Assembly: GCA_026415395.1 (NCBI GenBank)
Contig: JAOAHD010000007.1
Span: 855,972 to 919,971 of the forward strand
Direction: 5' to 3'
Source of the DNA: Candidatus Binatia bacterium
GTDB taxonomy: Bacteria > Desulfobacterota > Binatia > HRBIN30
DNA length: 64,000 nucleotides
The translations under genes were made by a program, and so were the position numbers. This document shows positions 49,611-64,000 of this stretch, one piece after another. Below the pieces are notes generated by a model, which worked only from the letters and a program-made list of their open reading frames with translations, ran no database searches and was not told the origin of the DNA. Positions within the stretch are counted from its first letter, which is position 1. Each line of letters starts with the position of its first letter.

Positions 49611-49694
49611 GACGCAGCCATTTACATGAATTCGAATACCGATTGCTGCCCTTGACCGGCGCGCAACGGGGTCGTTAGGCAGCTTGAGCTCACT

Positions 49695-50540
49695 ATGAAT
49701 CTTGCGTGCAAGGGGCCGCCTGAGTTGTTCGGGTTTCCGCGGCACCGGTGGCTGGATTACGGGCCGTGGCTTGCGGCCGCGATGGTCTCGCACGCAATAC
49801 TGGTGTGGGCCTTGTCGCACATACCTGTGCAGGTGTTGCCGTTGGTGGGCGAGCCACCATTGCGGGTGACCATTGTCGGGCTGCGTTCCGGTGGAGGCGC
49901 GCCCCCCGGAGGGCCCGCTGCGGAACATCGAGAAGAAGCTGGTATGGGAGCAATGCGGTCGTCGCCCGACGCGGGTGAACAACCGCCTGCAGATCCGGCG
50001 CCTCAGCGAAATCACCAACCGAAGGTTCGAAGGCCGGCGCCAGCGCGCAACCAAAGGGCGAAGGTAGCCGAGGCAAACACGGAGCGGAGCGCAACCCGTT
50101 CGGTGGTCCCGAACAAAGCCGAGGACGACCTGGGTTCCCACTTGGGGGCGAGCGAAGGGTCGGGCGGTGCTGGCGCGAATGCTGCGGGAGGCAAGGGGGA
50201 AGGAAACGGCGGCAGTGGTGCAGCCGGGGGAATGGGGGGGCGAGGCGGAGTCGCTGGGACCGGAGTGGGCGATGCCCGTGCGTACTGCCTGCGTTGTCCG
50301 CCGCCTGTGTACCCCGTGATGGCGCGGCAGCGCAATTGGAGTGGAGTGGTGCGCGTGTGGCTGGAGCTAGCGGGAGACGGAACGGTGCGCACAGCGCGGG
50401 TGGAACAGTCGTCCGGGCATGAGGTTCTTGATCGGGAGGCACTGGCTGCGGCAAAGAACAGCCGATTTCGCTTACCCGCAGACGCGTCGGGCCGCACGAC
50501 CAGCGGGGTCATCGAGTACCGCTTCGAACTCGTGGAGTAA
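49695..50540 (+). CDS. TonB-family energy-transducer protein
   Basis: It has an N-terminal TM, a Pro/Gly-rich linker, and the C-terminal TonB domain VYPVMARQRNWSGVVRVWLELAGDGTVRTARVEQSSGHEVLDREALAAA. No exbB/exbD genes are adjacent. Confidence 0.75.
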   Translation: MNLACKGPPELFGFPRHRWLDYGPWLAAAMVSHAILVWALSHIPVQVLPLVGEPPLRVTIVGLRSGGGAPPGGPAAEHREEAGMGAMRSSPDAGEQPPADPAPQRNHQPKVRRPAPARNQRAKVAEANTERSATRSVVPNKAEDDLGSHLGASEGSGGAGANAAGGKGEGNGGSGAAGGMGGRGGVAGTGVGDARAYCLRCPPPVYPVMARQRNWSGVVRVWLELAGDGTVRTARVEQSSGHEVLDREALAAAKNSRFRLPADASGRTTSGVIEYRFELVE

Positions 50541-50686
50541 AGCGGCCGCAATCGGCAGTGGCCGAAGCGAGAAATCTACACGTGTTCGGACGGCCGAACA
50601 CGTTGCGCCGATAAGGCCTTTGCGTTACCGACTTGGACTCGTTGCGGGTCGGCCCCCGAGGCGGGCTGCCTGGCGCTGTGTTGCGT

Positions 50687-53341
50687 ATGAAGGAGCTCCC
50701 GAAAACCTATGACCCCTCGCAAGTCGAGGACAAGTGGTACGCCTTCTGGGAACAACAGGGATACTTTTGGGCTGAGGAAGACCAGCCGGGCCCGCGTTTT
50801 AGCATCGTAATCCCACCGCCGAACGTCACCGGTGTGCTCACGATGGGGCACGTCCTGAACAACACCTTGCAAGACATTTTGGTGCGCTACAAGCGCATGG
50901 ATGGCTTCGTGACCCTGTGGCTTCCGGGAACGGACCATGCCGGAATTGCCACACAGAACGCGGTTGAAAAGCAACTCGCGAAGGAGGGGTTGGATCGGCA
51001 TCGCCTCGGCCGCGAGGCATTTTTACAGCGCGTTTGGGAGTGGAAGGAAAAATATGGCCGCACCATTTTGCTTCAGCTCCGCAAGCTCGGCGCTTCGTGC
51101 GACTGGCGGCGAGAGCGGTTCACCATGGACCCTGGGCTCTCTGCTGCCGTGCGCGAGGTGTTCGTGCGCTTGTACGAAAAAGGGCTCATTTACCGCGGCC
51201 AGCGAATCATCCACTGGTGCGTTCGTTGCCACACCGCGCTGTCTGACGAAGAGGCGATTACCGTAGAGGGTGGCGAAGCTGGCTCGCTGTGGCACATCCG
51301 CTACCCAGCCGAAGATGGCGGGGAGGGTGTGGTGGTGGCCACGACGCGTCCGGAGACCATGCTCGGCGACGTGGCGGTTGCCGTTCACCCTGACGATGTC
51401 CGTTACCGGCACCTCATCGGAAAGCGGGTGGTGCTGCCATTGCTGGAGCGGCCCATTCCCGTGATTGCCGATCCGGCGGTGGATCCGAGCTTCGGCACCG
51501 GTGCAGTGAAGGTAACCCCGGCGCACGATGCCGCCGATTTCGAGATTGCGCAGCGCCAGAATTTGCCGCCGTTGGTGGTGATGGATACCGAGGGCAAGAT
51601 CAACGAGAACGGAGGCCCCTACCGAGGCTTGGAGCGCTTCGCGGCGCGGCGGAAAATCGTGGCCGACCTCAGCGAGCGCGGCTTGCTGGTGAAGGAGGAG
51701 CCGTACCGTGTGCCGGTGCGGCGCTGCGAGCGCTGCCAGACGGTGATCGAGCCATATCTATCGACTCAATGGTTCGTGCGCATGAAACCCTTGGCGGGGC
51801 CGGCGATCGAAGCGGTGCGGTCGGGCAAGCTGAGGCTCATTCCGGAACGTTGGGTTGGAGTGTACCTCCATTGGTTGGAAAACATCCGTGATTGGTGCAT
51901 CAGCCGCCAGCTTTGGTGGGGGCACCGAATCCCGGTTTGGTATTGCGCCCAATGCGGCAAGGAGACGGTCGCCCGCACGGACCCGACTGCCTGCGCTCAC
52001 TGTCGCTCGACGGAGATCGTACAAGATCCCGACGTGCTCGACACTTGGTTTAGTTCTTGGCTGTGGCCGTTTTCGACCATGGGTTGGCCGGAGCGCACGC
52101 GGACTCTGGAGCGCTTCTATCCCACGGATGTTCTCGTGACGGGAGCAGACATCATCTTTTTCTGGGTGGCCCGGATGGTCATGGCAGGGTGCGAGTTCAT
52201 GGGGGAGGTGCCCTTCCGCACGGTGTACTTCAACAGCATCGTGCGCGACCTGCAGGGCCGTAAGATGTCGAAGTCGCTGGGCAATTCCCCAGACCCCTTG
52301 GAGGTGATTCAGGAGTTCGGTGCCGATGCGCTGCGCTACACGATCGTGGCTCTGGCGCCTCCCGGTGAGGATGTCCGCTATGCAAAGGAGAAAACCGACC
52401 TCGGGCGGCACTTCGCCAATAAGATCTGGAACGCCGCGCGCTTCGTGTTGCGACAGGTGAAGCCGGGGGAGCAGGTGGCTCCGCTTGCGGCCTACCGCTC
52501 GCAGGAATTTGCGGTTGCAGACCGTTGGATTCTCTCCCGCCTGCAACAAGTGATCGAAAACACGCGGAGCGCTCTCGATCAGTTCCGCTTCAACGATGCC
52601 GCATTAGGAATCTACCAGTTTCTCTGGCACGAGTACTGCGATTGGTACATCGAAATGGCCAAGCTGCCGCTTTCCAACACTGGCTCCGCAGAAGCTCGGC
52701 GTACGTGCTCGGTATTGGTGGCGGTGTTGGATCAGGCGTTGCGGCTCCTGCACCCGATCATGCCGTTTGTCACAGAGGAGGTCTGGCAGCATTTGCCGGT
52801 CGAGCGACCAGCGGCCAGTATCATGGTGGCGCCATTCCCGCGGGCGGATCAGGCTTGGCGAGATTCTGCCGCCGAGGAGTGCGTTGCGCAAATCCTTGCG
52901 GCGGTACGCGGCGTGCGAAATTTGCGTGCGGACCTGGGTCTACCTCCCGGGCAAGCCCTGACGGTACGCCTTCCTGCAAGCGTGTCGCCCGAGATGGAAG
53001 CCCTGTTGCGTGCGTATCTCAAAGTGCTGGCACGGGCAGAACGCATCGAACGCATGGAGAAGGGTGAGCACCCAGTGGGGGAACCTTCGGTCATGGTCGA
53101 TGGGCTCGGCGAGCTATTTCTCCCGGTGCGCGGCCTTGTGGATACCGCCGAGGTGCGGCAGCGCTTGGAACGGGAACTCGGGAAATTGAGAAAAGATTTA
53201 GAGCTCGTCGAAAGTAAGTTAGCTCGGGAGGATTTCGTTGCCCGGGCACCGCGCGAAATCGTCGAGAAGGAGCGCGAGAAAGCAACAGCGCTGCGCCAGC
53301 GCGCGGAGAATTTGCGGCGGCACCTCGAAGCGCTCGCTTGA
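50687..53341 (+). CDS. valS: valine--tRNA ligase
   Basis: The start is MKELPKTYDPSQVEDKWYAFWEQ. The HIGH motif is PPNVTGVLTMGHV and the KMSKS motif is present. The C-terminal coiled-coil is typical of ValRS. The protein is 884 aa. Confidence 0.95.
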   Translation: MKELPKTYDPSQVEDKWYAFWEQQGYFWAEEDQPGPRFSIVIPPPNVTGVLTMGHVLNNTLQDILVRYKRMDGFVTLWLPGTDHAGIATQNAVEKQLAKEGLDRHRLGREAFLQRVWEWKEKYGRTILLQLRKLGASCDWRRERFTMDPGLSAAVREVFVRLYEKGLIYRGQRIIHWCVRCHTALSDEEAITVEGGEAGSLWHIRYPAEDGGEGVVVATTRPETMLGDVAVAVHPDDVRYRHLIGKRVVLPLLERPIPVIADPAVDPSFGTGAVKVTPAHDAADFEIAQRQNLPPLVVMDTEGKINENGGPYRGLERFAARRKIVADLSERGLLVKEEPYRVPVRRCERCQTVIEPYLSTQWFVRMKPLAGPAIEAVRSGKLRLIPERWVGVYLHWLENIRDWCISRQLWWGHRIPVWYCAQCGKETVARTDPTACAHCRSTEIVQDPDVLDTWFSSWLWPFSTMGWPERTRTLERFYPTDVLVTGADIIFFWVARMVMAGCEFMGEVPFRTVYFNSIVRDLQGRKMSKSLGNSPDPLEVIQEFGADALRYTIVALAPPGEDVRYAKEKTDLGRHFANKIWNAARFVLRQVKPGEQVAPLAAYRSQEFAVADRWILSRLQQVIENTRSALDQFRFNDAALGIYQFLWHEYCDWYIEMAKLPLSNTGSAEARRTCSVLVAVLDQALRLLHPIMPFVTEEVWQHLPVERPAASIMVAPFPRADQAWRDSAAEECVAQILAAVRGVRNLRADLGLPPGQALTVRLPASVSPEMEALLRAYLKVLARAERIERMEKGEHPVGEPSVMVDGLGELFLPVRGLVDTAEVRQRLERELGKLRKDLELVESKLAREDFVARAPREIVEKEREKATALRQRAENLRRHLEALA

Positions 53342-53540
53342 GTGCTTACGGCCTCTTCTCCGCGGGACCTTGCGCCTGCGCTCCATTCTGCACGCAGGAC
53401 TTGAGATATGGCCGAGGGCTGCGCGGGGCAGGCCCGCAGCGAGCCTTTGGGCCCGTGGTTGGCAGCGGTGCATTGACTGAACAGCAGCCTCGCCACTAAA
53501 AGCAGCAATTCAAAACTTGCTCCGGGAGGCACACCGACGA

Positions 53541-55364
53541 ATGGCTGAACCATTGATGTTCGATGCACCCACATTCACTGTAAGCGCTCACATCGAAGCC
53601 CGTGCTCGTCATCCGGTAACACGGGACAAAGTATTGCTGATGCACCGAGATCGGCGTTGGACGTATCGGCAGTTTCGCAACGAAAGCGTGCGCACTGCGC
53701 ATTTTTTGCTTCAGCGGCTCGGTAAAATTGACAGTGACCATCCCGGCCACGTTGCCATGTTGCTCGAAAATCACCTCGAGCTGCTCTCACTGTACGGCGG
53801 GTGCGCTTATGGTGGCCTGCTGTTGTTCGGTGTGAACACTGGGCTGCGCGGCGAGGTGTTGGCTGGAGTGTTGAATCATGCGCGGGCTCGTGTGCTGGTT
53901 GTAGACGAGAAGTTTCTTCCGGAAGTCGAACGAATTCAAAACCAGCTTCGCTATCTTGGGTCTGAAAATATCTTGGTGTTGCGCACGCAAGGCGGCGAGG
54001 TGCCTGCCACCCGGGACTATGTGGCGTGTCTCGACCGCGAGGTGGGGCCGAGCGAGCGTGAATTGGATCCGCCGGATGTCGCCGTCTCGCCGGACACGAA
54101 CCTGATGGTGATTTACACTTCCGGAACCACTGGCTTGCCGAAGGGGATCTTGAACAACCATATGAAGCTTTGTGCGGTCGGCTTCGGCGTCTCTTCGAAC
54201 CTCGGCCTGACGTATGAGGATGTCGGGTACGGTTGCATGCCCTTGTTCCACTCGAACTCGATGTTCGTCGGCTTTATGCCGGCGTTTTGGGTAGGGGGCA
54301 GCATGGGGTTGCGCGAGCGTTTTAGCGCGAGCCAGTTTCTCGATGATATCTTTACGTATGGCTCCACGTTCTGGAATTACGTCGGTGAGCCCGTGCATTA
54401 TGTGCTGGCGGCAATCGAGAAGCGCTATGGCGGCGACGAAGAGGTGATTGCGCGGGAAGTGACCAACAATCCTCGGAACAAATTGCGCTATGCTGTGGGC
54501 AACGGAGCGGCCCCGCCAGACATCGATAAGTTCATGAAGTGGCTCGGGCTCGAAGACATGTTCGAGCTTTACGGCTCCACCGAGGCGGCCATTAGTACGT
54601 TCCGGCGAAAAGGGGATCCACGTGGGTGCGTAGGTGAGATTACCGATCCGGCCGTGAAGATCTTGGCGCCAGACGGTAGCGAGTGCGAGCCAGCGCAATT
54701 GGGCCCCGACGGGAAGCTCCTCAACTACGACCGAGCTGTGGGAGAAATTTGCCGCGTGGCGCCGGATACTGCGCTGTTCCAAGGTTACTACGACAATCCG
54801 CAGGCCAACCAGGAAAAGTACCGCGACGGGGTGTACCACTCCGGCGACTTGGGCCACATACTGATCGTCAATGGGCGGCGGTACTTGTACTTCGATGGCA
54901 GGACGGATGACTGGATTCGCAAAGACGGGGAAAATTTCTCGGCCGCGCAAGTAGGCCGCTTGCTGAGCGAGCACCCGGACATCCAACTTGCTGTCGCCTA
55001 TGGCGTACCTTGCCCAATTTCCGACGAGTTGGTGATGGCGGCAATCAAGCTGCGCGATGGAGCGGAATTCGATCCGCAGGGTTTCTTCAATTGGTGCGAG
55101 AAACAGGTCACGCACGGCAGCATGGATCGGAAATGGTTCCCGGACTTTGTCCGGATTGTCGACGATTTTGAATACACGCAGACGCAGAAGGTGTTGGTGC
55201 GAAACTACAAGAAGGTTCACTTCGATCTCAATCGCATTCCTGATGCGCGCATTTACTGGCGCCGCCGGGGCGATACGACGTTCCGGCCATTTACTCGCGA
55301 CGACTACGAGGGCTTACGGCGCGAGTTTGCGGCTCAGGAGAAACTGGAACTGCTCGATCGTTAA
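53541..55364 (+). CDS. acyl-CoA synthetase / AMP-dependent ligase
   Basis: The ATG at 53541 has a GGAGG RBS 11 nt upstream. The AMP-binding motif is MVIYTSGTTGLPKG. The track ORF begins at the TTG at 53517. Confidence 0.8.
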   Translation: MAEPLMFDAPTFTVSAHIEARARHPVTRDKVLLMHRDRRWTYRQFRNESVRTAHFLLQRLGKIDSDHPGHVAMLLENHLELLSLYGGCAYGGLLLFGVNTGLRGEVLAGVLNHARARVLVVDEKFLPEVERIQNQLRYLGSENILVLRTQGGEVPATRDYVACLDREVGPSERELDPPDVAVSPDTNLMVIYTSGTTGLPKGILNNHMKLCAVGFGVSSNLGLTYEDVGYGCMPLFHSNSMFVGFMPAFWVGGSMGLRERFSASQFLDDIFTYGSTFWNYVGEPVHYVLAAIEKRYGGDEEVIAREVTNNPRNKLRYAVGNGAAPPDIDKFMKWLGLEDMFELYGSTEAAISTFRRKGDPRGCVGEITDPAVKILAPDGSECEPAQLGPDGKLLNYDRAVGEICRVAPDTALFQGYYDNPQANQEKYRDGVYHSGDLGHILIVNGRRYLYFDGRTDDWIRKDGENFSAAQVGRLLSEHPDIQLAVAYGVPCPISDELVMAAIKLRDGAEFDPQGFFNWCEKQVTHGSMDRKWFPDFVRIVDDFEYTQTQKVLVRNYKKVHFDLNRIPDARIYWRRRGDTTFRPFTRDDYEGLRREFAAQEKLELLDR

Positions 55365-55418
55365 CAGCGGTGGAACAAACGCCGCGTTCGCGGCGGACTG
55401 AGGGAACGGGAGGCAACT

Positions 55419-56387
55419 ATGGCGATCGTCGTCATGCGCTTTGACTTGCGGGTGCCGCCCTTTGCGACCACGGATCACGCCCGGCAATACGCGGCTTGTC
55501 TGGAGATGTGCCGTTGGGCGGATGAATTGGGGCTCGACATGTGCGTATTGTCCGAGCACCACGGAGTGGAAGATGGCTTCTTGCCAGCGCCGCTCACATT
55601 AGCAGCAGCCATCGCGGGCGCGACGAAACGGTTGCCGATCAATGTTGCCGCACTGTTGGTGCCGCTGCATGATCCGATTCGCTTGGCTGAAGAGTTGGCC
55701 GTGTTGGATCTCGTAAGCAGCGGACGAGTCAGCGTGGTTGCTGGCCTTGGTTACCGGCCGGAGGAGTTCGCCATGGCTGGAGTGGATCGCGCCCAGCGGG
55801 GCAAGCTGCTGGAAGAAGGGATCCAGGTGTTGCGTCAAGCGTGGACGGGTGAACCCTTCGAGTTCCGCGGCCGCACGGTGCGCGTGACACCTAAGCCCGC
55901 CAATCCCATTACGATCTTCTTGGGTGGCTCCACGCCTGCAGCGGCGCGCCGGGCGGCGCGGCTGCGGACGGCGTTTCTCCCCGCCATCGCGGATCCCCAA
56001 CTGGCGACGATCTACCAAGAGGAATGTGTGCGCGTGGGTTTCGACCAAGGTTTCGTGATGATGCCAGGAGGGCCGGGGTTCGTACATGTTTCGCAGGATC
56101 CAGAGCGGGATTGGGAGCGCATCGGACCGCACGCGTTGTACGACGCCACAACCTACGCTGCGTGGCAAACGCCGGATCAGCGCTCGCAGGTGCATGTGCA
56201 CGGGAGTACGCTCGAAGATGTTCGTCGCTCCGGGGTTTACCAGGTGCTCACCCCGGAAGAGTGCGTGGCGCTTGCACGGGAGCAAGGGCGGCTGGTGTTG
56301 CACCCGCTGATGGGAGGGATTGCGCCGGAGTTAGCCTGGGAGAGCCTACGCTTGTTCGAACGCGAAGTGTGGCCGCGGATCCGTTAA
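55419..56387 (+). CDS. LLM-class (luciferase-like) flavin-dependent oxidoreductase
   Basis: The start is MAIVVMRFDLRVPP. The TIM-barrel luciferase-like pattern includes GLDMCVLSEHH. Confidence 0.8.
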   Translation: MAIVVMRFDLRVPPFATTDHARQYAACLEMCRWADELGLDMCVLSEHHGVEDGFLPAPLTLAAAIAGATKRLPINVAALLVPLHDPIRLAEELAVLDLVSSGRVSVVAGLGYRPEEFAMAGVDRAQRGKLLEEGIQVLRQAWTGEPFEFRGRTVRVTPKPANPITIFLGGSTPAAARRAARLRTAFLPAIADPQLATIYQEECVRVGFDQGFVMMPGGPGFVHVSQDPERDWERIGPHALYDATTYAAWQTPDQRSQVHVHGSTLEDVRRSGVYQVLTPEECVALAREQGRLVLHPLMGGIAPELAWESLRLFEREVWPRIR

Positions 56388-57407
56388 ATGCGCTTTCTCT
56401 GTGATGACCGCGGTGGGGTTCGTTACGGCCGCTTTGAAGAGCCGGTGGAGGAAATCGACTATCGCCGCTGCCGGTTGATCGATGAGTACGATCGCCCCGC
56501 TGGACGGTGGCGCCGTTACTTTGGCTTTAAGCAATTCGAATTCCTCGGCGGGGTCAGCGAACAGGTCGTCTTTGGCTGCGCCCTAGTGAATGTGCGTTAC
56601 GCTGCTTCGGCATTCTTGTATGTATATTGGCCGAGACAAAAGCTCCTCGACGAATTCAGTTTCGTGCGTCCGCTGGCCCTGGGTGTGACCATGGACCAAC
56701 GCCCCGAGGACGGCCTTGCGGAGTTTGCGAGCGGCGGGGCCAGAATTCGTTTCTCTGCGGGTCGGCTTCCGCGAAGCCGGCAACTGATCGCGGACCTGCC
56801 CGGCCGCCTGGTTATCGAGGCCGAGTGGGACGAAGAGAGCCCGCCCACTAAGCCGATGCGCATTTGCACGCGTTCGGGCGCGGCCGGCTGGGTGTTCGCG
56901 CGCAAGACTGCGGGTCAGCAAGTACGCGGCACCTTGGAGACCAAAAATGGTCGCGTCGACCTGGCTAGTGTGGGCACGCTCGGTCATCGCGATTGGAGCG
57001 CCGGCTACATGCGCCGGGAAACGCATTGGCTATGGGGGTGTTTGGCTGGACGTGCCAACACGGGGGAGGCGATTGGACTCAACATCTCGTGCGGCGTGAA
57101 CGAAACGAGCTTTACCGAGAACTGTTTCTGGGTCGACGGCCAGCGGGAGGACCTGTGGTTGGTGCACTTCGACTTCGAGCGCACCAATTTCATGCGACCT
57201 TGGCGAATGACATCCAACGATGGCCGTTGCCAACTGTCGTTCCAACCCGAGGCATGCCATCGCGAGCGCATGCGTTTGGGGATACTCGGCCTGAACTTTT
57301 GCCAACTGATCGGCCGGTACAGCGGGGAGTTAATGCGGGCAAATGGCGACACGCTGCACCTGGAGCGCCAACTCGGATATGCCGAGTGGCAGTATGCTAA
57401 GTGGTGA
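56388..57407 (+). CDS. DUF2804-family protein
   Basis: The ATG follows the stop of the previous gene directly. The protein is 339 aa. The DUF2804 assignment is from overall sequence pattern recognition. Confidence 0.5.
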   Translation: MRFLCDDRGGVRYGRFEEPVEEIDYRRCRLIDEYDRPAGRWRRYFGFKQFEFLGGVSEQVVFGCALVNVRYAASAFLYVYWPRQKLLDEFSFVRPLALGVTMDQRPEDGLAEFASGGARIRFSAGRLPRSRQLIADLPGRLVIEAEWDEESPPTKPMRICTRSGAAGWVFARKTAGQQVRGTLETKNGRVDLASVGTLGHRDWSAGYMRRETHWLWGCLAGRANTGEAIGLNISCGVNETSFTENCFWVDGQREDLWLVHFDFERTNFMRPWRMTSNDGRCQLSFQPEACHRERMRLGILGLNFCQLIGRYSGELMRANGDTLHLERQLGYAEWQYAKW

Positions 57408-57600
57408 CCGTCAGCTAGCTTGCACGCCATCGATCCGAGGTCGGTAATTCGGCACCGGTCATTCCAGGAGCGCCCGCTGCGATTGAGCCAGCCCGCGCAA
57501 GGCGAAGTTTTAGGCGAGGGGTAGATTCGCTCCGAGGCCGCGAGGTTCAGCCGTGGCGGCAAGGCGTGGTATGTGCACGGCCGCTTGGCGGCCACTCCCC

Positions 57601-57990
57601 TCATTGGTTTCCGGTGGAGTCCGGCGCGGTTTGTCGGAGCCACGTTTGCATATCGAAGTAGTCCCGCCACGCCCGGATCTTCCCGTTTTCGATTTCGAAG
57701 ACCCCGGCAACCGGCAACTCCACGTCTTTGCCGAGGAAGCGAAAGCGGTCGATCCGCTCGGTGAAGACGACATTGTCCTTGCTGGCGAGGTGCAGAATCT
57801 CGAATTCGATGGACTCCGCGGGGCCGACAAAAGTCTCGAGGGTGGCTCGGATTGCATCTAAGCCCTGTAAGGGTGGCAGCGGCATGTTGTGGTAGACCGC
57901 GTCTGGGTGGAAGAACTCCAGCAGACGATCGATGTTCCGCTCCCGCCACGCTTCACAAAAGGCGACGACAATTTCTTGGCTCGCGCGCAT
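57601..57990 (-). CDS. SnoaL-like / NTF2-fold protein (limonene-1,2-epoxide-hydrolase-like)
   Basis: The start is MRASQEIVVAFCEAWRERNIDRLLEFFHPDAVYHNMP. The protein is about 129 aa. Confidence 0.65.
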   Translation of the reverse strand: MRASQEIVVAFCEAWRERNIDRLLEFFHPDAVYHNMPLPPLQGLDAIRATLETFVGPAESIEFEILHLASKDNVVFTERIDRFRFLGKDVELPVAGVFEIENGKIRAWRDYFDMQTWLRQTAPDSTGNQ

Positions 57991-58445
57991 GATTGCCCTC
58001 CCAAGCAAACAATCCGCTACCAACGTGTATCACGAGTGTGCTGGTTTTACCTAGGGGGGATGGTAAGCTAGAGAGCAAGCTCCGAACCCTCTCTGCGCCC
58101 GACCCCACGCGGCCAGCCGGGTAGTTGGTCCACCTACTGTCAATTCCTCGGCCGCGTTGCTTGTTTATTTTCCCGAGTCACTCCTCGCCGTTCGACGCCT
58201 TGAGGCTGGGAACCTGAGAAGAGCTAGCGAAGCCGCTTGTGTGCTTGTTGATTTAGCGGGTTCAAGACCAAAACTCCGATTGACTTCGTCTTTTTTGAAT
58301 GGCAGGTTGCTCGTGCTGGCCTTCGTGTAGGCATCGGCTAGCAGGTTGGGTACGTCAACAGGATTGTACGCAGTGGTTCTTGACCAGTGGTTCGAACCGC
58401 AAAGGGGGTAATGCACGGGGTGTGGTGAATTGTAAGGAGGAAGAC

Positions 58446-60968
58446 ATGGCGGTCCACGATCGATGCTTCCGGGTCGGGTGCATTTGCCGATCCTTGCGTT
58501 TATGGCGTGCCTTCGCGGTAGCCGTGTTGGCGGTGGTGGCAGCTCGGGGAAGTGCGCAGCTAGGGGAGCGGTTGCGGCTGGTGAGTGTCAATCCCGCCGG
58601 CCAAGCGTCCAACGGTACCGCTGGCGGGGTGGGGATGGACCGTGAGGGGCGGGTGGTCGGCTTTTATTCGGATGCCTCCAACTTGGTCGTCCTTGATACG
58701 AACCAGACGCGAGACGTGTTCGTGCGCGATCTTGTGACGGGTGCGACGGAGCGGGTGAGCGTAAGTTCCACTGGGGCCCAAGCGAACGGGCCCAGTCATG
58801 CACAAGGTGGCAACGTGTCCCTGAGCGGCGATGGTAGCCTCGTGGTCTTTTATTCAGCGGCGACCAACCTTGTGCCGGGAGACACCAATGCTCGCGCAGA
58901 CGTGTTTGTGCGCCGCAGAGATGCGGGAACGACGGAGCGGGTGAGTGTGGCGAGTGACGGGTCTCAGGCGAACGGGCACAGCACCTACGCAGCGATCAGT
59001 GCCGATGGCCGTTGGGTGGCCTTTCAGTCGGAAGCAACAAACTTGATCCCCGCCGATACAAATCGCGTCACCGATATTTTCGTGCGCGACCTGGTGAACG
59101 GCACCACGGAGCGACTGTGCAACGTCCAGCCGAACGGGCCGAGCTCCAACCCGGCGATTAGCGAGGATGGCTCGGTGGTGGCGTTCTCCTCGGCGGCCAC
59201 GAATTTGGTCAACGGCGACACCAATGGGCGGCTCGATATTTTTGTGTGCGACCGGACTCGCGGCAGCGTCGAGCTTGTGAGCATTGCCTCCGACGGCACT
59301 CAAGGAAACGGCGACAGCATCTTGCCGGCCATTAGTGCGGACGGTCGGTTCGTCGCATTTAAGTCGCTCGCGAACAACCTCGTGCCGGATGATCGGAATG
59401 GTGTCGTGGATGTGTTTGTATTCGATCGGCAGAGCCGCACGACAGAGCGGGTGAGTGTGAATGTACGTGGGGGCAACGCAGACGACTTCTCTTTCCCGCC
59501 GACGATCTCGGCGGATGGTCGGTTCGTGGCCTTCGGTTCGTCCGCAACGAACTTGATCTTTAACGATTCGAACCACGTGTCGGATATGTTCGTGCGCGAT
59601 CGCCAAATTGGGCGCACGCTGATTGTGGATGTGAACGACCGTGGCGAGCTGGCTAATGGCGGCGTTCCCGATGCGGCGCCGGCGATTTCGGGGCCTGGCA
59701 CGCGTGTGGCCTTCGTCTCGTTTGCCACCAATCTCGTGCCGGGCGGTGCCTCGACAGGGCAGGCGTACGTCGCTCAGAATCCGTTTTTCGGCCCGGGCGC
59801 GTGCCCCGACGGGCTTTGCCCTGAGGGGCTGGTTTGCGTGGAGGGATTCTGCGTGACCCCGACGCGCACACCAACTGTGACGCGAACCCCGACGCCGACG
59901 CAAACGCGCACCCCGACGAATACGCGCACGCCAACACCCACTTTCCGCCCCTGCGAGACGGATGCTGACTGCCCTCCGGACCATCATTGCCGTGGCGGTA
60001 CGTGCAAGAAGAAACGCGAGTGTGACGATAACGACCCGACGATTGACCGACTGAATTGCTTTGACCGCGAAGCCTGTGTCGATGGCCTTTGCGAGTGTGG
60101 CGGGGATTGTAATCGCGATGGTTTCGTGTTCGGGAACGAGGTATCGAACGCTGTGTACATCCTTGGCGATGTGCTGCCGCTCTCGCAATGTGCAGCCGCC
60201 GATCTCAACGGAGATGGGCAGGTGATGGGTAACGAGATTACGCAGATCGTGTTGAACTTGGCACGAGGTTGCGTGCAGGAGGGTAGGCCCCTCACCTTTG
60301 CGCACGACCGCGGGCAAACGGTGACGCTGATGATCACCGCGCGTGCCGCAGGCGAGGATCGGGTGGATGTCAGCGTGGAGGCTAGCGGCGGCGAGGGCGA
60401 GCTAGCGACCGTGCAGTTGGATTTGCTGTACGATCCCGCCCTGTTGGGGATTGCGGACCCAGGGCGCGCGTGTCGCTTGGACGATCGCATTCGCGGCTCT
60501 CACGTGTTGCTGGCCACACAGCCGCAAAACCCGCCAGCACCGGAGGGGCGCAAGCGATTGCGCCTGTTCGCGGGCGATCTCGCGTTCCCGATTCAGACTT
60601 TTGCCGATGGCCCGGTGTTCCACTGTACGTTCTCCCGGGTGCAGGGAGGCGCAGGCGAAGCAGTATTTGGTGCAGACCGTACGAATGTGGGTGACCAACG
60701 AGCCGATACCTATCGTGTTGTTGTTGTTTCGGGTGGGATTACTCTGGAAGCTCCCACGGTCACTGAGCCGACACCGACAATGAGTTGTGCCGGTGACTGC
60801 GATGGCAATGGTCAGGTCATGGGCAACGAGATCACCACGGTGGTGCAAATTATGGCTTCGCGCCTGCCGTTGAGTGCGTGCCCGAACGCGGATGCAGATG
60901 GTGATGGTGAGGTCACGGTAGGCGACGTGACCAAAGCGGTCATCCGCTTAGCACGGGGGTGTCCATGA
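58446..60968 (+). CDS. secreted PD40/WD40-like beta-propeller protein carrying two dockerin-like Ca-binding repeat pairs that flank a cohesin-like beta-sandwich domain
   Basis: The ATG at 58446 has an AAGGAGGA RBS. The signal is MAVHDRCFRVGCICRSLRLWRAFAVAVLAVVAARGSAQ. A ~44-aa repeat occurs 8 or more times (ISADGRxVAF.S.ATNL...DTN...DVFVRD...G.TERVS). There is a TPT(R/Q)TPT linker, a Cys-rich module, and dockerin-like pairs DCNRDGFVFGNE...DLNGDGQVMGNEI and DCDGNGQVMGNEI...DADGDGEVTVGDV. The central segment reads VTLMITARAAG...ATVQLDLLYDPALLGI...FHCTFSRV. Confidence 0.7.
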   Translation: MAVHDRCFRVGCICRSLRLWRAFAVAVLAVVAARGSAQLGERLRLVSVNPAGQASNGTAGGVGMDREGRVVGFYSDASNLVVLDTNQTRDVFVRDLVTGATERVSVSSTGAQANGPSHAQGGNVSLSGDGSLVVFYSAATNLVPGDTNARADVFVRRRDAGTTERVSVASDGSQANGHSTYAAISADGRWVAFQSEATNLIPADTNRVTDIFVRDLVNGTTERLCNVQPNGPSSNPAISEDGSVVAFSSAATNLVNGDTNGRLDIFVCDRTRGSVELVSIASDGTQGNGDSILPAISADGRFVAFKSLANNLVPDDRNGVVDVFVFDRQSRTTERVSVNVRGGNADDFSFPPTISADGRFVAFGSSATNLIFNDSNHVSDMFVRDRQIGRTLIVDVNDRGELANGGVPDAAPAISGPGTRVAFVSFATNLVPGGASTGQAYVAQNPFFGPGACPDGLCPEGLVCVEGFCVTPTRTPTVTRTPTPTQTRTPTNTRTPTPTFRPCETDADCPPDHHCRGGTCKKKRECDDNDPTIDRLNCFDREACVDGLCECGGDCNRDGFVFGNEVSNAVYILGDVLPLSQCAAADLNGDGQVMGNEITQIVLNLARGCVQEGRPLTFAHDRGQTVTLMITARAAGEDRVDVSVEASGGEGELATVQLDLLYDPALLGIADPGRACRLDDRIRGSHVLLATQPQNPPAPEGRKRLRLFAGDLAFPIQTFADGPVFHCTFSRVQGGAGEAVFGADRTNVGDQRADTYRVVVVSGGITLEAPTVTEPTPTMSCAGDCDGNGQVMGNEITTVVQIMASRLPLSACPNADADGDGEVTVGDVTKAVIRLARGCP
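59856..59943 (+). repeat. Thr/Pro-rich low-complexity linker coding repeat (TPTRTPTVTRTPTPTQTRTPTNTRTPTPT)
   Basis: The nucleotide sequence consists of direct ac(g/c)cc(g/a)ac-type hexamer/nonamer iterations. Similar tracts occur at 61696-61850 and 62284-62470 in the next gene. Confidence 0.7.
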
Positions 60969-61021
60969 CGTGGCTGCGAAGGTTGAAAAGGCGTGGGTGT
61001 GTTAGGCAGGAGGAGGCGCCA

Positions 61022-62599
61022 ATGAGGCAGCAAGTGCAGCCGCAGCAGGCTCGCAGAAACGGGATACGGAAGCCAAGCCTTTTGACCGCGATGACTTGTG
61101 CTGGCATTTGGAGCTTCTTTGCCTTGCCGGCACTAGGGGTGGTCACGATTCGTGTCACCACATCCGATGCGTTTACGGGAGGGGATGGTGCTCCGCCCGA
61201 GGCGGCAACCATGACAGTACGTCTGGAGCGGGAAAACTCGAGCGAGGTGGCAACGACCGTCAACTTCGACCTGATCTTTCGCACAGCGCAGTTCGATTTG
61301 TCCGGAGCATGCGAGGATGAGTCGCCGTGTCAGCTTTCAGAGACGTGTCCCAATGGAGGAACGTGCCGCTTCGTTCCAGTTCGATGTCAGAAGGATCCAC
61401 GGCTCGCGGACCATCTCTTGGAAGTTGTACCTCCGGATTTTCAGAACGTGCCGGCTGGGGAGTATCGGTTGCGCTTTGCATTGGTGACGACGACCTTCTC
61501 GAACCCCTTGCCGGTCATCGACGACGGGGTGTTGCTCACGTGTAGCCTTCCGCCGCAGGCTAGCGCTTCACCAGGCCCGCAGGTCATCTCCTACCAGAGG
61601 CTGCAGGTGGCGGACAACCAGTTGCCCGCGCGAGAGGTTCCTTCGCAGATCGTCTTGCAATTGGGTCAAATTGTGGCCGGAGCACGAAAAACAGCAACAC
61701 CGACGCCCTCGCCCACGCCGACTGCGACTGGGCCCACCGCAACGCCAACGGGCACGCTGGCGACGGAGACGCCGACTCCTACGCAATCGCTTACCCCCGG
61801 CACGCCGATCCCGCGCACGCCGTGTCCCTCGCCACGCCCGGCGCCGGGAGGCCCCGCGGTGTACGCCGAGGATGTAGTGCTTGCCGCGAGTGGCCCCGTG
61901 ACGGTGACGGTCAAGCTCGCCGCAGGTGACCGTCAGATTGTGGCCACACAGAACGACCTGGCGTTGACTGGTGGCATTCGCATCGACGCCGGTACCGGCG
62001 GCCGCCCCGACTGCACAGTGAATCCCGAGCTGAACAAGAACGGTTCCACCTTTGGGTTCCTGCCCCCTGGATGCAGCGGTGATGCGTGCACAGGAATCCG
62101 TGCGGTCGTTGTGTCGCTGGACAACGTGGATCCGATTCCCGATGGAGCGGTGTTGTACACATGCCGAGCGACGCTGACGGATGTGGAGGCGCGTGTCGAT
62201 GTGACCGGTGTGGTGGGGAGCGACGCAAACGGGGATCCGGTTCCAGGAGTCGGTAGTCGCGACGGGTTTATATGTGTGGAGCCGCCGCCCACTCCCACAC
62301 CGACGGTTACCAACACCGCGACGCCTCAGCCGCCGAGCCCGACGGCGACCGTGACCTCGCCGGCCGCGACGAGAACGGCCACGCCAACCGGAACGGGAAC
62401 AATCGGTACGCCCACGTCCACGCGAACGCTGGGGAGCCCGACCGCGACGCGAACGGCGACGGGGCCTGCTCCCAGTGAGGGAGGCAACGGTTGTGATTGC
62501 AACGTGGCTGGCACTCCGGGTGCGGGTTGGTCGTCTGCGTGGCTCTTGCTGCCGGCTCTTTTCCTGAGGTGGCGGCGCCGGCGCTTGGGTGTAGCGTGA
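61022..62599 (+). CDS. cell-surface scaffold-like protein with cohesin-like domains, Thr/Pro linkers and a C-terminal MYXO-CTERM-like sorting signal
   Basis: The ATG at 61022 has an AGGAGGA RBS. The signal is MRQQVQPQQARRNGIRKPSLLTAMTCAGIWSFFALPALG. The cohesin-like segments are VNFDLIFRTAQFDL and IVATQNDLALTGGIRIDA...VLYTCRATL. There are three TP-rich linkers. The C-terminus GNGCDCNVAGTPGAGWSSAWLLLPALFLRWRRRR matches the GC-motif + TM helix + Arg-cluster pattern. Confidence 0.65.
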   Translation: MRQQVQPQQARRNGIRKPSLLTAMTCAGIWSFFALPALGVVTIRVTTSDAFTGGDGAPPEAATMTVRLERENSSEVATTVNFDLIFRTAQFDLSGACEDESPCQLSETCPNGGTCRFVPVRCQKDPRLADHLLEVVPPDFQNVPAGEYRLRFALVTTTFSNPLPVIDDGVLLTCSLPPQASASPGPQVISYQRLQVADNQLPAREVPSQIVLQLGQIVAGARKTATPTPSPTPTATGPTATPTGTLATETPTPTQSLTPGTPIPRTPCPSPRPAPGGPAVYAEDVVLAASGPVTVTVKLAAGDRQIVATQNDLALTGGIRIDAGTGGRPDCTVNPELNKNGSTFGFLPPGCSGDACTGIRAVVVSLDNVDPIPDGAVLYTCRATLTDVEARVDVTGVVGSDANGDPVPGVGSRDGFICVEPPPTPTPTVTNTATPQPPSPTATVTSPAATRTATPTGTGTIGTPTSTRTLGSPTATRTATGPAPSEGGNGCDCNVAGTPGAGWSSAWLLLPALFLRWRRRRLGVA

Positions 62600-62627
62600 A
62601 GCGAACTCATTGGTAGAAGGTGAGGTG

Positions 62628-64000
62628 ATGTCCGACTTACCGTGGCGCTCGGTTTGGGGCGAGGGTGTGGTCGCAGAGGTGGACAAGCGACCGACAGTTG
62701 AGGAGTTGATCTCGCGGTTCGAGCGCCGGCAAGGCTTGGTCGGCATCATCGGCCTCGGCTACGTGGGGTTGCCGCTTGCTGCCACATTTGCTGAGGGCGG
62801 CGTGGCGGTTTTGGGCTTCGACATCGATCGGAGCAAAGTGGAGGAGCTGAGGGCAGGGAGAAGTTACATCCGGCACATCGAGAGCGAGCGGCTCGGGAAA
62901 ATTGTTGCCCATCAGGGGCCGCGACCCTCGCCGGGGAAGTTTTACCCGACGGCCGACTTTGCGCTTCTCCGGTTTTGCGATGCGATCCTGATTTGCGTGC
63001 CGACGCCGCTGAGCCCGAACCGGGATCCCGACCTGTCTTACGTAGAGAAAACGGGGGAGACCATTGCGGAATACCTGCGCCCTGGGCAGCTGGTTGTGCT
63101 AGAGAGCACCACTTACCCAGGGACCACGGACGAGGTGTTGAAAACGATCCTGGAGCGATCCGGGTTGCGCGTCGGGGTCGACGTGCACCTGGCGTTCTCG
63201 CCAGAGCGGGAGGATCCAAATAACCCGCACTTCACGACCCGCACGATTCCAAAACTGGTTGGAGGCGTTACCGAGGCCTGCACGCGCGTGGCAGCGGCTT
63301 TATATGGGGCAGTGCTCGAGCGGGTGGTGCCGGTGTCATCAGCAAGGGTGGCGGAAGCGGCGAAGTTGCTGGAGAACATTTATCGGTGCGTGAACATTGC
63401 CTTGGTCAACGAGCTTAAGGTGCTGTTCGACCGCATGGGAATCGATATCTGGGAGGTCATCGATGCTGCGGCAACCAAACCCTTCGGGTTCACCCCCTTT
63501 TACCCTGGGCCGGGTTTGGGCGGGCACTGTATCCCCATCGATCCATTTTATTTGAGTTGGAAAGCGCGGGAGTACGAGTTGACCACGCGCTTCATCGAGC
63601 TCGCTGGTGAGATCAACCACGCCATGCCGGCTTTCGTCATCGGGAAGCTGGCCGATGCGTTGAACGAGCGGCAAAAGAGCCTAAAGGGCGCGCGCATCCT
63701 CGTGCTCGGTGTGGCGTATAAAAAGGATCTCGACGACACCCGCGAGTCGCCAGCGTTGAGACTGATCGATCTCTTGCTCCGCAAAGGAGCGCGGGTGAGT
63801 TACCACGATCCCTACGTTCCGTACTTGAAGCGGTCGCGAAATTATGATTTTAACATGGCGTCAGTTCCATTGACTCGGGATGAGCTGGAGCGTGCGGATG
63901 CGGTGGTGGTGGCGACGGACCATTCGGTGTTCGACTATGAGTTCATCGTCGAGGCAAGTCAGCTTGTCATCGATACGCGCAATGCGACTCGCCATGTGCG
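62628..64000 (+). CDS. nucleotide-sugar dehydrogenase (UDP-glucose/GDP-mannose dehydrogenase family; UDP-N-acetyl-D-mannosamine/glucosamine dehydrogenase-like), 3' end beyond window
   Basis: The ATG at 62628 has a GAAGGTGAGGTG RBS. The NAD-binding segment is GLVGIIGLGYVGLPLAATFA. The catalytic Cys region is GFTPFYPGPGLGGHCIPIDP. The C-terminal UDP-binding domain reads ILVLGVAYKKDLDDTRESPA. It is not in the track because it has no stop within the window. Confidence 0.85.
   Translation, partial: MSDLPWRSVWGEGVVAEVDKRPTVEELISRFERRQGLVGIIGLGYVGLPLAATFAEGGVAVLGFDIDRSKVEELRAGRSYIRHIESERLGKIVAHQGPRPSPGKFYPTADFALLRFCDAILICVPTPLSPNRDPDLSYVEKTGETIAEYLRPGQLVVLESTTYPGTTDEVLKTILERSGLRVGVDVHLAFSPEREDPNNPHFTTRTIPKLVGGVTEACTRVAAALYGAVLERVVPVSSARVAEAAKLLENIYRCVNIALVNELKVLFDRMGIDIWEVIDAAATKPFGFTPFYPGPGLGGHCIPIDPFYLSWKAREYELTTRFIELAGEINHAMPAFVIGKLADALNERQKSLKGARILVLGVAYKKDLDDTRESPALRLIDLLLRKGARVSYHDPYVPYLKRSRNYDFNMASVPLTRDELERADAVVVATDHSVFDYEFIVEASQLVIDTRNATRHV

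Follow-up and report, generated by a model that had tools for sequence, protein, structure and literature searches.

The window, the whole 64,000-nucleotide stretch of DNA analysed here, comes from a Candidatus Binatia MAG (phylum Binatota), and thus from neither a myxobacterium nor any other member of the Myxococcota. Two adjacent genes form the subject of this analysis, both of them real ORFs on the plus strand, as are all features described below. Gene 1 (58446..60968; 840 aa) encodes a secreted PD40-propeller protein with a dockerin-cohesin-dockerin C-terminal region; its ATG is preceded by the Shine-Dalgarno sequence AAGGAGG, while the mechanical ORF opens earlier, at 58299, and its product is 100% identical to a hypothetical protein from a Candidatus Binatia MAG (P0111). 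Gene 2 (61022..62599; 525 aa) encodes an anchored two-cohesin protein, carries the Shine-Dalgarno context GGAGGAGG ahead of its ATG, and has syntenic orthologues of 44-71% identity (P0001-P0008). The preliminary description of the locus had placed the genes 54 bp apart; they are indeed neighbours, with a measured gap of 53 bp that holds no terminator. When all 302 window ORFs of at least 80 aa were scanned in six frames, two or more Ca loops occurred only in gene 1, cohesin profile matches only in genes 1 and 2, and a Cys/TM/Arg tail only in gene 2.

A nucleotide-sugar dehydrogenase gene, as previously proposed, begins 28 bp 3' of gene 2 (62628..64000, truncated where the window ends; TIGR03026 score 421 bits, cut-off 189.8) and is probably carried on one transcript with it. 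Its membership of the system described below is doubtful: the dehydrogenase is found at the orthologous loci L001, L003 and L006, and L004 lacks one at that position, so that the surface glycan/EPS context it had been taken to hint at is weak.

The N-terminal half of gene 1 starts with a predicted signal peptide (aa 1-37, 58446..58556), read by eye from a basic n-region, a hydrophobic core and an A-x-A-like site (...VVAARGSA/Q). This is followed by a PD40/TolB-like beta-propeller (aa 40-450, 58563..59795) of about seven repeats with D[VI]FV[RC]D ends, which, as the preliminary description had it, is of the PD40 type (Pfam PD40, 48.2 bits against a cut-off of 20.9; 57/57 orthologues matched). 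We propose that the propeller is a ligand-binding module without a catalytic domain. Beyond it lie a short Cys module, CPDGLCPEGLVCVEGFC (aa 453-469, 59802..59852), whose C453, C458, C464 and C469 are near-invariant across 77 orthologues, a Thr/Pro linker (aa 470-499, 59853..59942), and a larger Cys-rich beta-hairpin module (aa ~500-551, 59943..60095) identified by weak EB/DUF7107 matches, invariant Cys and a model of short hairpins (pLDDT 72-90). The single Cys-rich module earlier placed after the linker corresponds to the larger of these; the shorter one stands before the linker.

In the C-terminal half of gene 1, four 12-residue loops of the form D-x-[ND]-x-[DN]-G-x-V...[ED], at aa 554, 586, 784 and 816, pair up as two complete modules of two loops each, the loop starts within a module lying 32 residues apart, and the two modules flank a beta-rich segment. 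This agrees with the two duplicated Ca-loop modules described previously, and Pfam Dockerin_1 matches 39/57 orthologues (best E 1.2e-7). Doc1 (C551-C609, 60096..60272; loops D554-E565 and D586-E597) has four invariant Cys, invariant D/G/V/E/C columns across orthologues, and a helix after each loop (model residues 64-74 and 96-108); Doc2 (C781-C839, 60786..60962; loops D784-E795 and D816-D827) has model helices at residues 294-304 and 326-338 and scores 19.2 bits against Dockerin_1 (aa 782-828), under the 22.9 cut-off. Each module is about 60 aa long, with two helices and without an entering helix ahead of the first loop. Since Doc1 and Doc2 are each kept across orthologues, yet are only 39-50% identical to one another, their sequences suggest two binding specificities.

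Cohesin-like domains had been described in both genes, and profiles and predicted folds together show that the three beta-sandwich segments are cohesins, the gene 1 domain and D1 by profile and fold, and D2 by profile. The gene 1 cohesin (aa 621-767, 60306..60746) gave an AF2 model with pLDDT 89.7 whose best 43 Foldseek matches in the PDB are all cohesins; its family profile matches the cohesin 6kg8 (E 6.7e-4), and Pfam Cohesin matches 37/57 gene 1 orthologues. D1 of gene 2 (aa 40-220, 61139..61681; AF2 pLDDT 89.7, pTM 0.85) is of the same subtype, with an added four-Cys insertion of about 30 aa. It aligns with gene-1-type cohesins, with which it has a Cys pair in common and which make up 13/24 rows of the alignment behind its model, and its best 48 Foldseek matches in the PDB are again all cohesins, so that comparison of predicted structures with known ones, as had been suggested, led to cohesins and not to an unrelated fold. 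D2 (aa 278-420, 61853..62281) belongs to a GRPDCTVNP...C..C...PIPDG..LYTC subtype; a profile built from 28 relatives matches solved cohesins only (5n5p_A, E 3.5e-10, then 5m2o, 5aoz and 6kgc), and its family aligns with that of the gene 1 cohesin at an hhalign probability of 96.4%. A Pfam search, likewise suggested earlier, found PD40 in gene 1 but left the window's own two proteins under the Cohesin and Dockerin_1 thresholds, with no Cohesin match in either.

Gene 2 opens with a predicted signal peptide (aa 1-39, 61022..61138), read by eye and kept in position in orthologues. Thr/Pro linkers follow D1 (aa 222-275, 61685..61846) and D2 (aa 421-487, 62282..62482), and the protein closes with a MYXO-CTERM-type sorting signal (62483..62596) composed of GNGCDC, a spacer, WLLLPALFL and RWRRRR, the tail sequence ending ...GNGCDCNVAGTPGAGWSSAWLLLPALFLRWRRRRLGVA. 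The assignment of this C-terminus to the tripartite MYXO-CTERM class holds by a slight margin, with TIGR03901 scoring 20.8 bits over aa 488-521 (cut-off 20). The same model matches 27/35 of the tail-bearing gene 2 relatives submitted (best E 6e-7), and reaches E <= 0.01 in only 6/25 syntenic partner tails. Across the tails of 25 partner proteins, neither the Cys nor the Pro of the TM helix varies, and the Gly ahead of the Cys and the run of Arg are near-invariant; the Gly-Cys motif is thus conserved in Binatota, and the tail is not the ordinary TM anchor, lacking that motif outside the Myxococcota, that had been considered as an alternative.

We examined the arrangement of the pair in 35 loci, each a species representative. 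In 24 of these, the gene that follows the gene 1 orthologue both matches a cohesin profile and has a complete G-C/TM/RRR tail; most of the others end at a contig edge. The arrangement still holds where identity in the gene 1 C-terminal region has fallen to about 30%. This class-wide adjacency strengthens the case for a functional linkage of the two genes. In other genomes, too, the partner genes contain a match to a D1- or gene-1-type cohesin, which is the part common to all of them. Among 110 gene 2 relatives, with one to five cohesins each, 47 have the tail and 25 have dockerin loops, with only 2 having both, a near-exclusion that, as far as sequence goes, is what a division into anchoring scaffoldins and docked subunits would give. 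The same four-Cys dockerin module terminates many other Binatia proteins; the cargo sampled comprises propellers, peptidases and one MtrC-like cytochrome, with no glycoside hydrolase among the 25 families listed.

The reading that we favour, at a probability of roughly 60%, is that genes 1 and 2 form a two-component, non-cellulosomal cohesin-dockerin module for surface display. The modules, loops, linkers and tail noted in the preliminary description are confirmed, and its interpretation of them as a binding system is partly supported. In the proposed mechanism, the gene 2 protein would be exported by Sec, with its C-terminal helix holding it in the inner membrane; the next steps, on the analogy of Myxococcus, would be lipidation of its conserved Cys, cleavage by a CPBP-type myxosortase and transfer to the cell surface, where the two cohesins, carried on long Thr/Pro stalks, would serve as sockets. 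The secreted gene 1 protein would plug into these through one of its two distinct, putatively Ca2+-binding dockerin-like modules, thereby displaying its propeller. D1 is the most likely docking site, because it has been conserved in every partner gene; in a distance-matrix comparison, neither dockerin stood out as co-evolving with it. Because gene 1 has its own cohesin and a second dockerin, it could also act as an adaptor that recruits further dockerin-tagged proteins or more copies of itself.

An alternative that we consider unlikely is that the dockerin-like modules of gene 1 bind the cohesin of that same protein, whether in cis or from one copy to another, making the dockerin-cohesin-dockerin region a folded stalk or homo-oligomerisation unit, with gene 2 encoding a separate surface adhesin that shares the operon. 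The unit is invariant in all orthologues, short linkers join Doc1 to the cohesin (about 10 aa) and the cohesin to Doc2 (about 12 aa), and some partner genes (L004, L015 and L017) have a dockerin and a cohesin of their own. The pTM of 0.73 for the 341-aa, four-module C-terminal model likewise exceeds what would be expected were only the 150-aa cohesin confidently placed, and hints that the region may pack on itself instead of reaching gene 2; such packing is, however, a guess from one number, and self-binding leaves unexplained both the cohesin-plus-anchor neighbour of gene 1 in 24/35 loci and the mutual avoidance of anchors and dockerins.

Similarly improbable is a scenario in which these domains are look-alikes that do not pair at all, the loop modules being disulfide-stapled EF-hand-type stabilisers and the sandwiches binding glycan, mineral or another cell, so that the two products would be independent surface or periplasmic proteins. 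Glu occupies loop position 12 in three of the four gene 1 loops, as in EF-hands, where dockerins usually have Asp, and of 33 cases of the module in other Binatia proteins, 15 are assigned to EF-hand_1 and only 3 to Dockerin_1. The modules could be plain Ca2+-binding units, because EF-hand proteins match their profile better in the PDB (2jnx, E 4.7e-8, and calmodulins) than does a true dockerin (6kge_D, E 2.8e-4, rank 17). Non-cellulosomal cohesins and dockerins of unassigned function are, moreover, widespread according to PMC9012536, citing Peer et al. 2009. Set against this are the union of three cohesins and two dockerin-architecture modules in one conserved gene pair, the Dockerin_1 matches among orthologues, a module size and two-helix make-up that are dockerin-like and not those of a four-helix EF-hand pair, and the scaffoldin-like spread of tails, dockerins and multi-cohesin proteins. 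Public records name gene 1 orthologues 'Protein TolB' or 'Tol biopolymer transport system component', and the PD40 repeats give a weak match to TIGR02800; the equivalog score, 28.6 bits against a cut-off of 343, nevertheless effectively refutes a TolB-type periplasmic role in the Tol-Pal envelope system, which is also at odds with the C-terminal half of gene 1, with the recurrence of its propeller elsewhere in fusion with many other extracellular modules, and with neighbours at 53517-64000 that include no Tol-Pal component.

Compared with known systems, the gene 2 anchor resembles MYXO-CTERM/myxosortase substrates (MrtX, MrtC, MrtP; Myxococcota, Bradymonadales) in its N-terminal signal peptide and tripartite, TIGR03901-passing tail, with an invariant Cys after Gly/Asp-rich residues, then a TM helix and an Arg cluster, and in its adhesin-like surface cargo, as for M. 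xanthus (PMC11980579). That tag has been described as specific to myxobacteria and widened only to Bradymonadales, whereas the Binatia tail sits in Binatota, has an invariant Pro in its TM helix (LLLPA), and matches the model at the borderline in syntenic partners; a motif scan of the window and of 930 kb of related loci revealed no candidate CPBP protease or myxosortase. Non-cellulosomal cohesin and dockerin modules have been treated by Peer et al. 2009 (cited in PMC9012536, which also deals with ANME archaea); further cases are the hypothetical 'planctosome' of freshwater Planctomycetes (PMC6461901) and the Archaeoglobus fulgidus cohesin 2xdh. Our literature search found no paper connecting Binatia or Binatota to cohesin or dockerin. 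As in those cases, non-CAZyme proteins are involved, in organisms without sign of cellulose degradation, and the proposed role is surface-complex assembly; unlike them, the Binatia pair is a fixed two-gene unit, conserved class-wide, with a Cys-containing C-terminal sorting signal as its anchor. From the cellulosomes of Clostridia and Ruminococcus (type I-III pairs) it differs in its Binatota instead of Firmicute host, in a MYXO-CTERM-type tail in place of SLH repeats or a sortase signal, in sampled cargo that, among the 25 families listed, includes no glycoside hydrolase, in dockerins whose four Cys are invariant, with Glu at loop position 12, and in a cohesin flanked by two dockerins on one protein. 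It nevertheless has in common with cellulosome scaffoldin systems the two-segment Ca-loop dockerins of about 60 aa and a hierarchy in which multi-cohesin proteins are anchored, adaptors combine cohesin with dockerin, and subunits bear a dockerin tag; judged on these sequence features, it looks like a small, non-cellulose counterpart of the cellulosome "plug and socket" system.

The two adjacent open reading frames of the cohesin-dockerin module proposed in the preliminary description, together with the modules claimed for them, were confirmed in the sequence. Gene 1, which encodes a secreted PD40-propeller protein of 840 aa, lies on the plus strand at 58446-60968, with a preferred ATG at 58446 preceded by AAGGAGG, and is followed after a spacing of 53 bp, within which no terminator-like site was found, by gene 2 (61022-62599, plus strand; 525 aa), whose ATG at 61022 is preceded by GGAGGAGG. 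A nucleotide-sugar dehydrogenase gene (TIGR03026, 421 bits) begins 28 bp past gene 2. On the upstream side stand genes for an alpha-glucosidase (47325-50141, minus strand), a valine-tRNA ligase (50633-53341), an acyl-CoA synthetase (53517-55364), a luciferase-like monooxygenase (55419-56387), a DUF2804 protein (56388-57407) and a limonene-epoxide-hydrolase/SnoaL-like protein (57601-58023, minus strand); this stretch of the window (47325-58023) is ordinary metabolism and looks unrelated to the gene pair. At L003, a related locus from another genome, the genes from the acyl-CoA synthetase through the SnoaL-like protein are kept in synteny. At L004, a further such locus, the gene-1 orthologue is immediately preceded by an open reading frame of at least 2,531 aa (L004:1-7552), which runs off the locus and has no Pfam match. 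Gene 1 is 100% identical to a protein annotated as hypothetical in a Candidatus Binatia MAG, where it lies on a contig of 1.28 Mb; near relatives come from 'bacterium HR30' and further Binatia MAGs, and the source phylum is Candidatus Binatota (class Binatia), not Myxococcota.

Read from its N-terminus, the gene 1 product comprises a signal peptide, about seven PD40 repeats, a short Cys module and a Thr/Pro linker, followed in its second half by a larger Cys-rich module, a first dockerin-like module (Doc1), a beta-rich segment of ~150 aa, a short Thr/Pro linker and a second dockerin-like module (Doc2). The propeller was borne out by Pfam (PD40, 48.2 bits); an identity as TolB (TIGR02800) was rejected, at 28.6 bits against an equivalog cut-off of 343.15. 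Doc1 is a module of ~60 aa with 12-residue Ca-binding loops at D554-E565 and D586-E597, and Doc2 has its two loops at D784-E795 and D816-D827, which places the anticipated two-loop Ca modules on either side of the gene-1 cohesin. Of the Pfam families expected here, PD40 alone passed on gene 1 itself: PF00963 (Cohesin) matched neither gene 1 nor gene 2, even at E <= 1, and PF00404 (Dockerin_1) reached 19.2 bits, under its gathering cut-off of 22.9, on module 2 only. Across 57 full-length gene-1 orthologues (51-84% identity), Dockerin_1 matches 39 at E <= 0.01 (best E 1.2e-7) and Cohesin matches 37 (best E 2.3e-12); one gene-1 orthologue carries the database name 'cohesin domain-containing protein'. 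An AlphaFold2 model of gene 1 aa 500-840 (mean pLDDT 89.7, pTM 0.73) runs from short Cys hairpins through two helices and a beta-sandwich to two further helices, and the best 43 PDB matches returned for it by Foldseek are all cohesin modules, which argues against the unrelated Ig or fibronectin fold that had been named as the alternative for the cohesin-like segments. When searched against PDB sequences, a profile of the gene-1 cohesin found 6kg8_A at E 6.7e-4.

Doc1 and Doc2 are each built from two segments, a loop plus a helix, that repeat every 32 residues; no helix leads into the first loop, which is immediately preceded by a Cys hairpin, and each module shows two long helices only in the AlphaFold2 model. 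Sequence and model together fit the dockerin architecture, in which tandem 12-residue Ca loops, each with a helix, occupy ~60-70 aa. An EF-hand reading draws on a 28-module profile, which, against PDB sequences, placed an Entamoeba CaBP first (4.7e-8), then calmodulins, with the dockerin 6kge_D 17th (2.8e-4), and loop position 12 is Glu in three of the four gene-1 loops; separation of the gene-1 modules from EF-hands is impossible by sequence alone, and it is module size and helix count in the model that favour dockerin. Within each dockerin-like module four Cys are invariant, spaced 4, 27 and 27 residues, from which we infer two putative disulfides per module, and the identical spacing recurs in many other Binatia proteins that carry one such module at the C-terminus. 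The identity between Doc1 and Doc2 is only 39-50%, though each is well conserved among orthologues, and this combination of conservation and mutual divergence suggests that the two modules may have different partners.

Gene 2 begins with a signal peptide, read from sequence, and continues with a first cohesin, D1 (aa 40-220), a Thr/Pro linker, a second cohesin, D2 (aa 278-420), another Thr/Pro linker and the C-terminal tail. D2 was combined with 27 relatives into a profile, which, against PDB sequences, gave 5n5p_A as its best match (E 3.5e-10), followed by 5m2o, 5aoz and 6kgc, the matches with meaningful E values in this set being cohesins only, and hhalign gave a probability of 96.4% for the relation between the D2 family and that of the gene-1 cohesin; these profile comparisons point to D2 being a cohesin. 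D1 can be aligned with the gene-1-type cohesin, with which it shares a conserved Cys pair and DPRL...RLRLF motifs, and contains in addition an insertion of ~30 residues with four further Cys (C..C..C..C; window 61310-61400, gene 2 aa 97-122). This insertion is missing from some distant syntenic partners, that is, from genes next after a gene-1 orthologue in other genomes (rows from L015, L023, L024 and L028). Because the full-length MAFFT alignment of gene 2 set D1-type fragments onto D2, folding was restricted to D1. The resulting AlphaFold2 model (pLDDT 89.7, pTM 0.85), whose alignment held 13 gene-1-type cohesins among 24 rows and may be biased by them, is predicted to form a flattened jelly-roll beta-sandwich of ~140-150 residues that superposes on solved cohesins, and Foldseek placed only cohesins among its best 48 matches (highest TM 0.74). 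A D1-only query (window 61136-61687, 184 aa) returned zero homologues by word-indexed search, despite orthologues 60-70% identical there, a result that we attribute to the sensitivity gap of the search rather than to biology.

At its extreme C-terminus gene 2 carries GNGCDC...WLLLPALFLRWRRRR, composed of a Cys motif, a TM helix and an Arg cluster. The claim that this is a MYXO-CTERM tail held marginally, GNGCDC...WSSAWLLLPALFLRWRRRR scoring 20.8 bits against TIGR03901, for which the cut-off is 20. Among 25 partners, C491 of the tail and the helix residue P511 never vary, and G490 and R518-520 hardly do; TIGR03901 matched at E <= 0.01 in 27 of 35 submitted tail-bearing cohesin relatives (best E 6e-7) and in only 6 of the 25 syntenic partners. 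Some tail-bearing relatives are already named 'MYXO-CTERM' in the JGI and NCBI databases. A crude motif scan, which covered 64 kb of the 1.28-Mb contig and 930 kb of related loci, yielded no convincing myxosortase/CPBP candidate in either. Loose CPBP-motif candidates numbered one in the window, an 872-aa open reading frame at 9503-12121, and one in the related loci.

Scanning a single genome for each species returned 342 related stretches, from which 80 loci, labelled mostly as Candidatus Binatia and otherwise with other or generic names, were retrieved. On orthologous contigs a gene-1 orthologue is followed by a gene-2-like gene, usually by the dehydrogenase, and then by a pair of paralogous secreted proteins and an arginine decarboxylase. 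In a survey of the 35 loci that span the entire Doc-Coh-Doc region, 24 have a partner with an N-terminal cohesin-profile match, a variable middle and a complete tail of the pattern (Gly/Asp-rich)-Cys-spacer-LLLxPAxLLW-RRRR, while the rest are mostly interrupted at a contig end. This pattern persists where the C-terminal region of gene 1 is no more than ~30% identical. The middle differs by genome: it is absent, consists of a D2 cohesin (the arrangement in this window), or combines Cys modules with a dockerin and a cohesin. Gene 2 is thus constant in D1 and the anchor, and because these alone are constant, we put D1 forward as the candidate socket for gene 1. A mirror-tree comparison over 23 genomes singled out no gene-1 module: the propeller correlated with D1 at r 0.77, and Doc1, cohesin and Doc2 did so at 0.83-0.87, with partial r of 0.57-0.67, the pairs being non-independent. 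The preliminary interpretation as a whole is partly supported, in that the domains were confirmed and the linkage of the two genes strengthened by the partner survey, and the dehydrogenase, missing in L004, had to be given up as a fixed, obligatory member.

The two paralogous secreted proteins (~370 and 383 aa; L001:11325-13664, also in L003, L004 and L006) fall past the 3' end of the window and stand, in every orthologous locus examined, after the dehydrogenase position and just before the arginine decarboxylase. They have the motifs ILVFPK, NTSNS.V.V.C.Y, ELKCV and LKGEA in common, gave no Pfam or NCBIfam match, and may be members of the same surface module. Binatia-type gene pairs were also seen on contigs labelled Myxococcales, Margulisiibacteriota, Terriglobales and Mycobacterium sp. 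(L011, L019, L020, L031 and others), at 50-71% identity (34% for L031), and these odd labels are probably MAG binning or labelling errors.

We classified 110 relatives of gene 2, the majority of which matched via D2 and which carry one to five cohesins each. The Cys/TM/Arg tail is present in 47 and at least two dockerin loops in 25, the two features occurring together in only 2; this near-exclusive distribution of anchor and dockerin, with the multi-cohesin proteins, suggests an organisation like that of anchoring scaffoldins, adaptor scaffoldins and docked subunits. Three to five tandem D2-type cohesins occur in the relatives P0005, P0009-P0015, P0046 and P0056, some of which have a MYXO-CTERM tail, some of which are tail-less and one of which ends in a dockerin; these proteins could serve the system as primary or adaptor scaffoldins.

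A search for other dockerin-bearing proteins, as had been suggested, found 33 with the four-Cys module in loci from several Binatia genomes, with several such genes per genome. Their passengers include beta-propellers (SGL, Vgb lyase, sortilin/BNR, NHL, YncE-like and FG-GAP), peptidases (M28, trypsin and kumamolisin pro-domain) and an MtrC/MtrF-type cytochrome, and no glycoside hydrolase was found among the 25 commonest families of this small sample. A single four-Cys dockerin-like module ends, and at times begins, many Binatia proteins (L041-L087), where it reads C-x-G-D-C-D-G-D-G-x-V-T-I-x-E-L-I...C...D-x-x-G-D-G-x-V-x-I-x-E-L-I-x-A-V-x-x-A-L-x-G-C; the helix positions of this general Binatia dockerin differ from those of the gene-1 dockerins (G-N-E-I-T).

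In the mechanism that we propose, gene 2 would be exported by Sec, processed at its MYXO-CTERM-type tail in a manner modelled on M. xanthus, and would then display its two cohesins at the cell surface, with D1 as the proposed socket. Secreted gene 1 would dock there via one dockerin, displaying its propeller, and its own cohesin and second dockerin would be left free for more assembly. This docking model is weakened by the pTM that the four-module fragment of gene 1 reached (0.73), by the non-discriminating distance matrices and by the lack of a convincing myxosortase candidate in the window and in 930 kb of related loci; given that pTM, the Doc-Coh-Doc region may instead pack on itself. Extended to the phylum, the boldest reading is of a Binatota-wide, hierarchical cohesin-dockerin 'surface-ome', in which MYXO-CTERM-lipid-anchored scaffoldins with one to five cohesins, gene-1-like adaptors, and propellers, proteases and multihaem cytochromes on disulfide-stapled four-Cys dockerins would be combined, a tentative proposal to which we assign a probability of roughly 0.4.

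Binatota are an uncultured phylum of soil and sediment with a global distribution. If the binding is real, the module would be a Gram-negative cohesin-dockerin assembly anchored by a C-terminal Cys-lipid sorting signal rather than by SLH or sortase, and would offer a clue to the surface layout of proteases, binding propellers and possibly electron-transfer cytochromes in this phylum, a testable function for many 'enigmatic' non-cellulosomal cohesins and dockerins, and, for the engineering of protein scaffolds, a new set of orthogonal parts made up of the four-Cys dockerin and its cohesins. If the wider reading is true, it would add a Gram-negative scaffoldin system whose anchor is new and whose cargo is non-carbohydrate, and extend MYXO-CTERM/myxosortase sorting past Myxococcota and Bradymonadales to a further phylum. 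If the binding is not real, the finding shrinks to two modular surface proteins of known domains.

The component parts of the system are already known. Catalogues of non-cellulosomal cohesin and dockerin modules go back to Peer et al. 2009 (as cited in PMC9012536); such modules have been discussed for ANME archaea (PMC9012536), and a hypothetical 'planctosome' with cohesin and dockerin was proposed in Planctomycetes (PMC6461901). Among the papers searched, none connects Binatia or Binatota with either module. What appears new is the use, in a new phylum, of a MYXO-CTERM-type anchor for cohesin scaffolds, the Doc-Coh-Doc adaptor, the Cys-stapled dockerins with their putative disulfides, and a gene pair that is fixed across the class. 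The MYXO-CTERM tag is described as specific to myxobacteria, plus Bradymonadales, and in M. xanthus its processing involves lipidation of the Cys, the CPBP protease MrtX as the cleaving enzyme, and delivery to the surface by way of the T2SS (PMC11980579), whereas the host of gene 2 belongs to Candidatus Binatota and lies outside both lineages. The cargo differs as well: where the cellulosome gathers dockerin-tagged carbohydrate-active enzymes, the Binatia sample consists of propellers, peptidases and a cytochrome.
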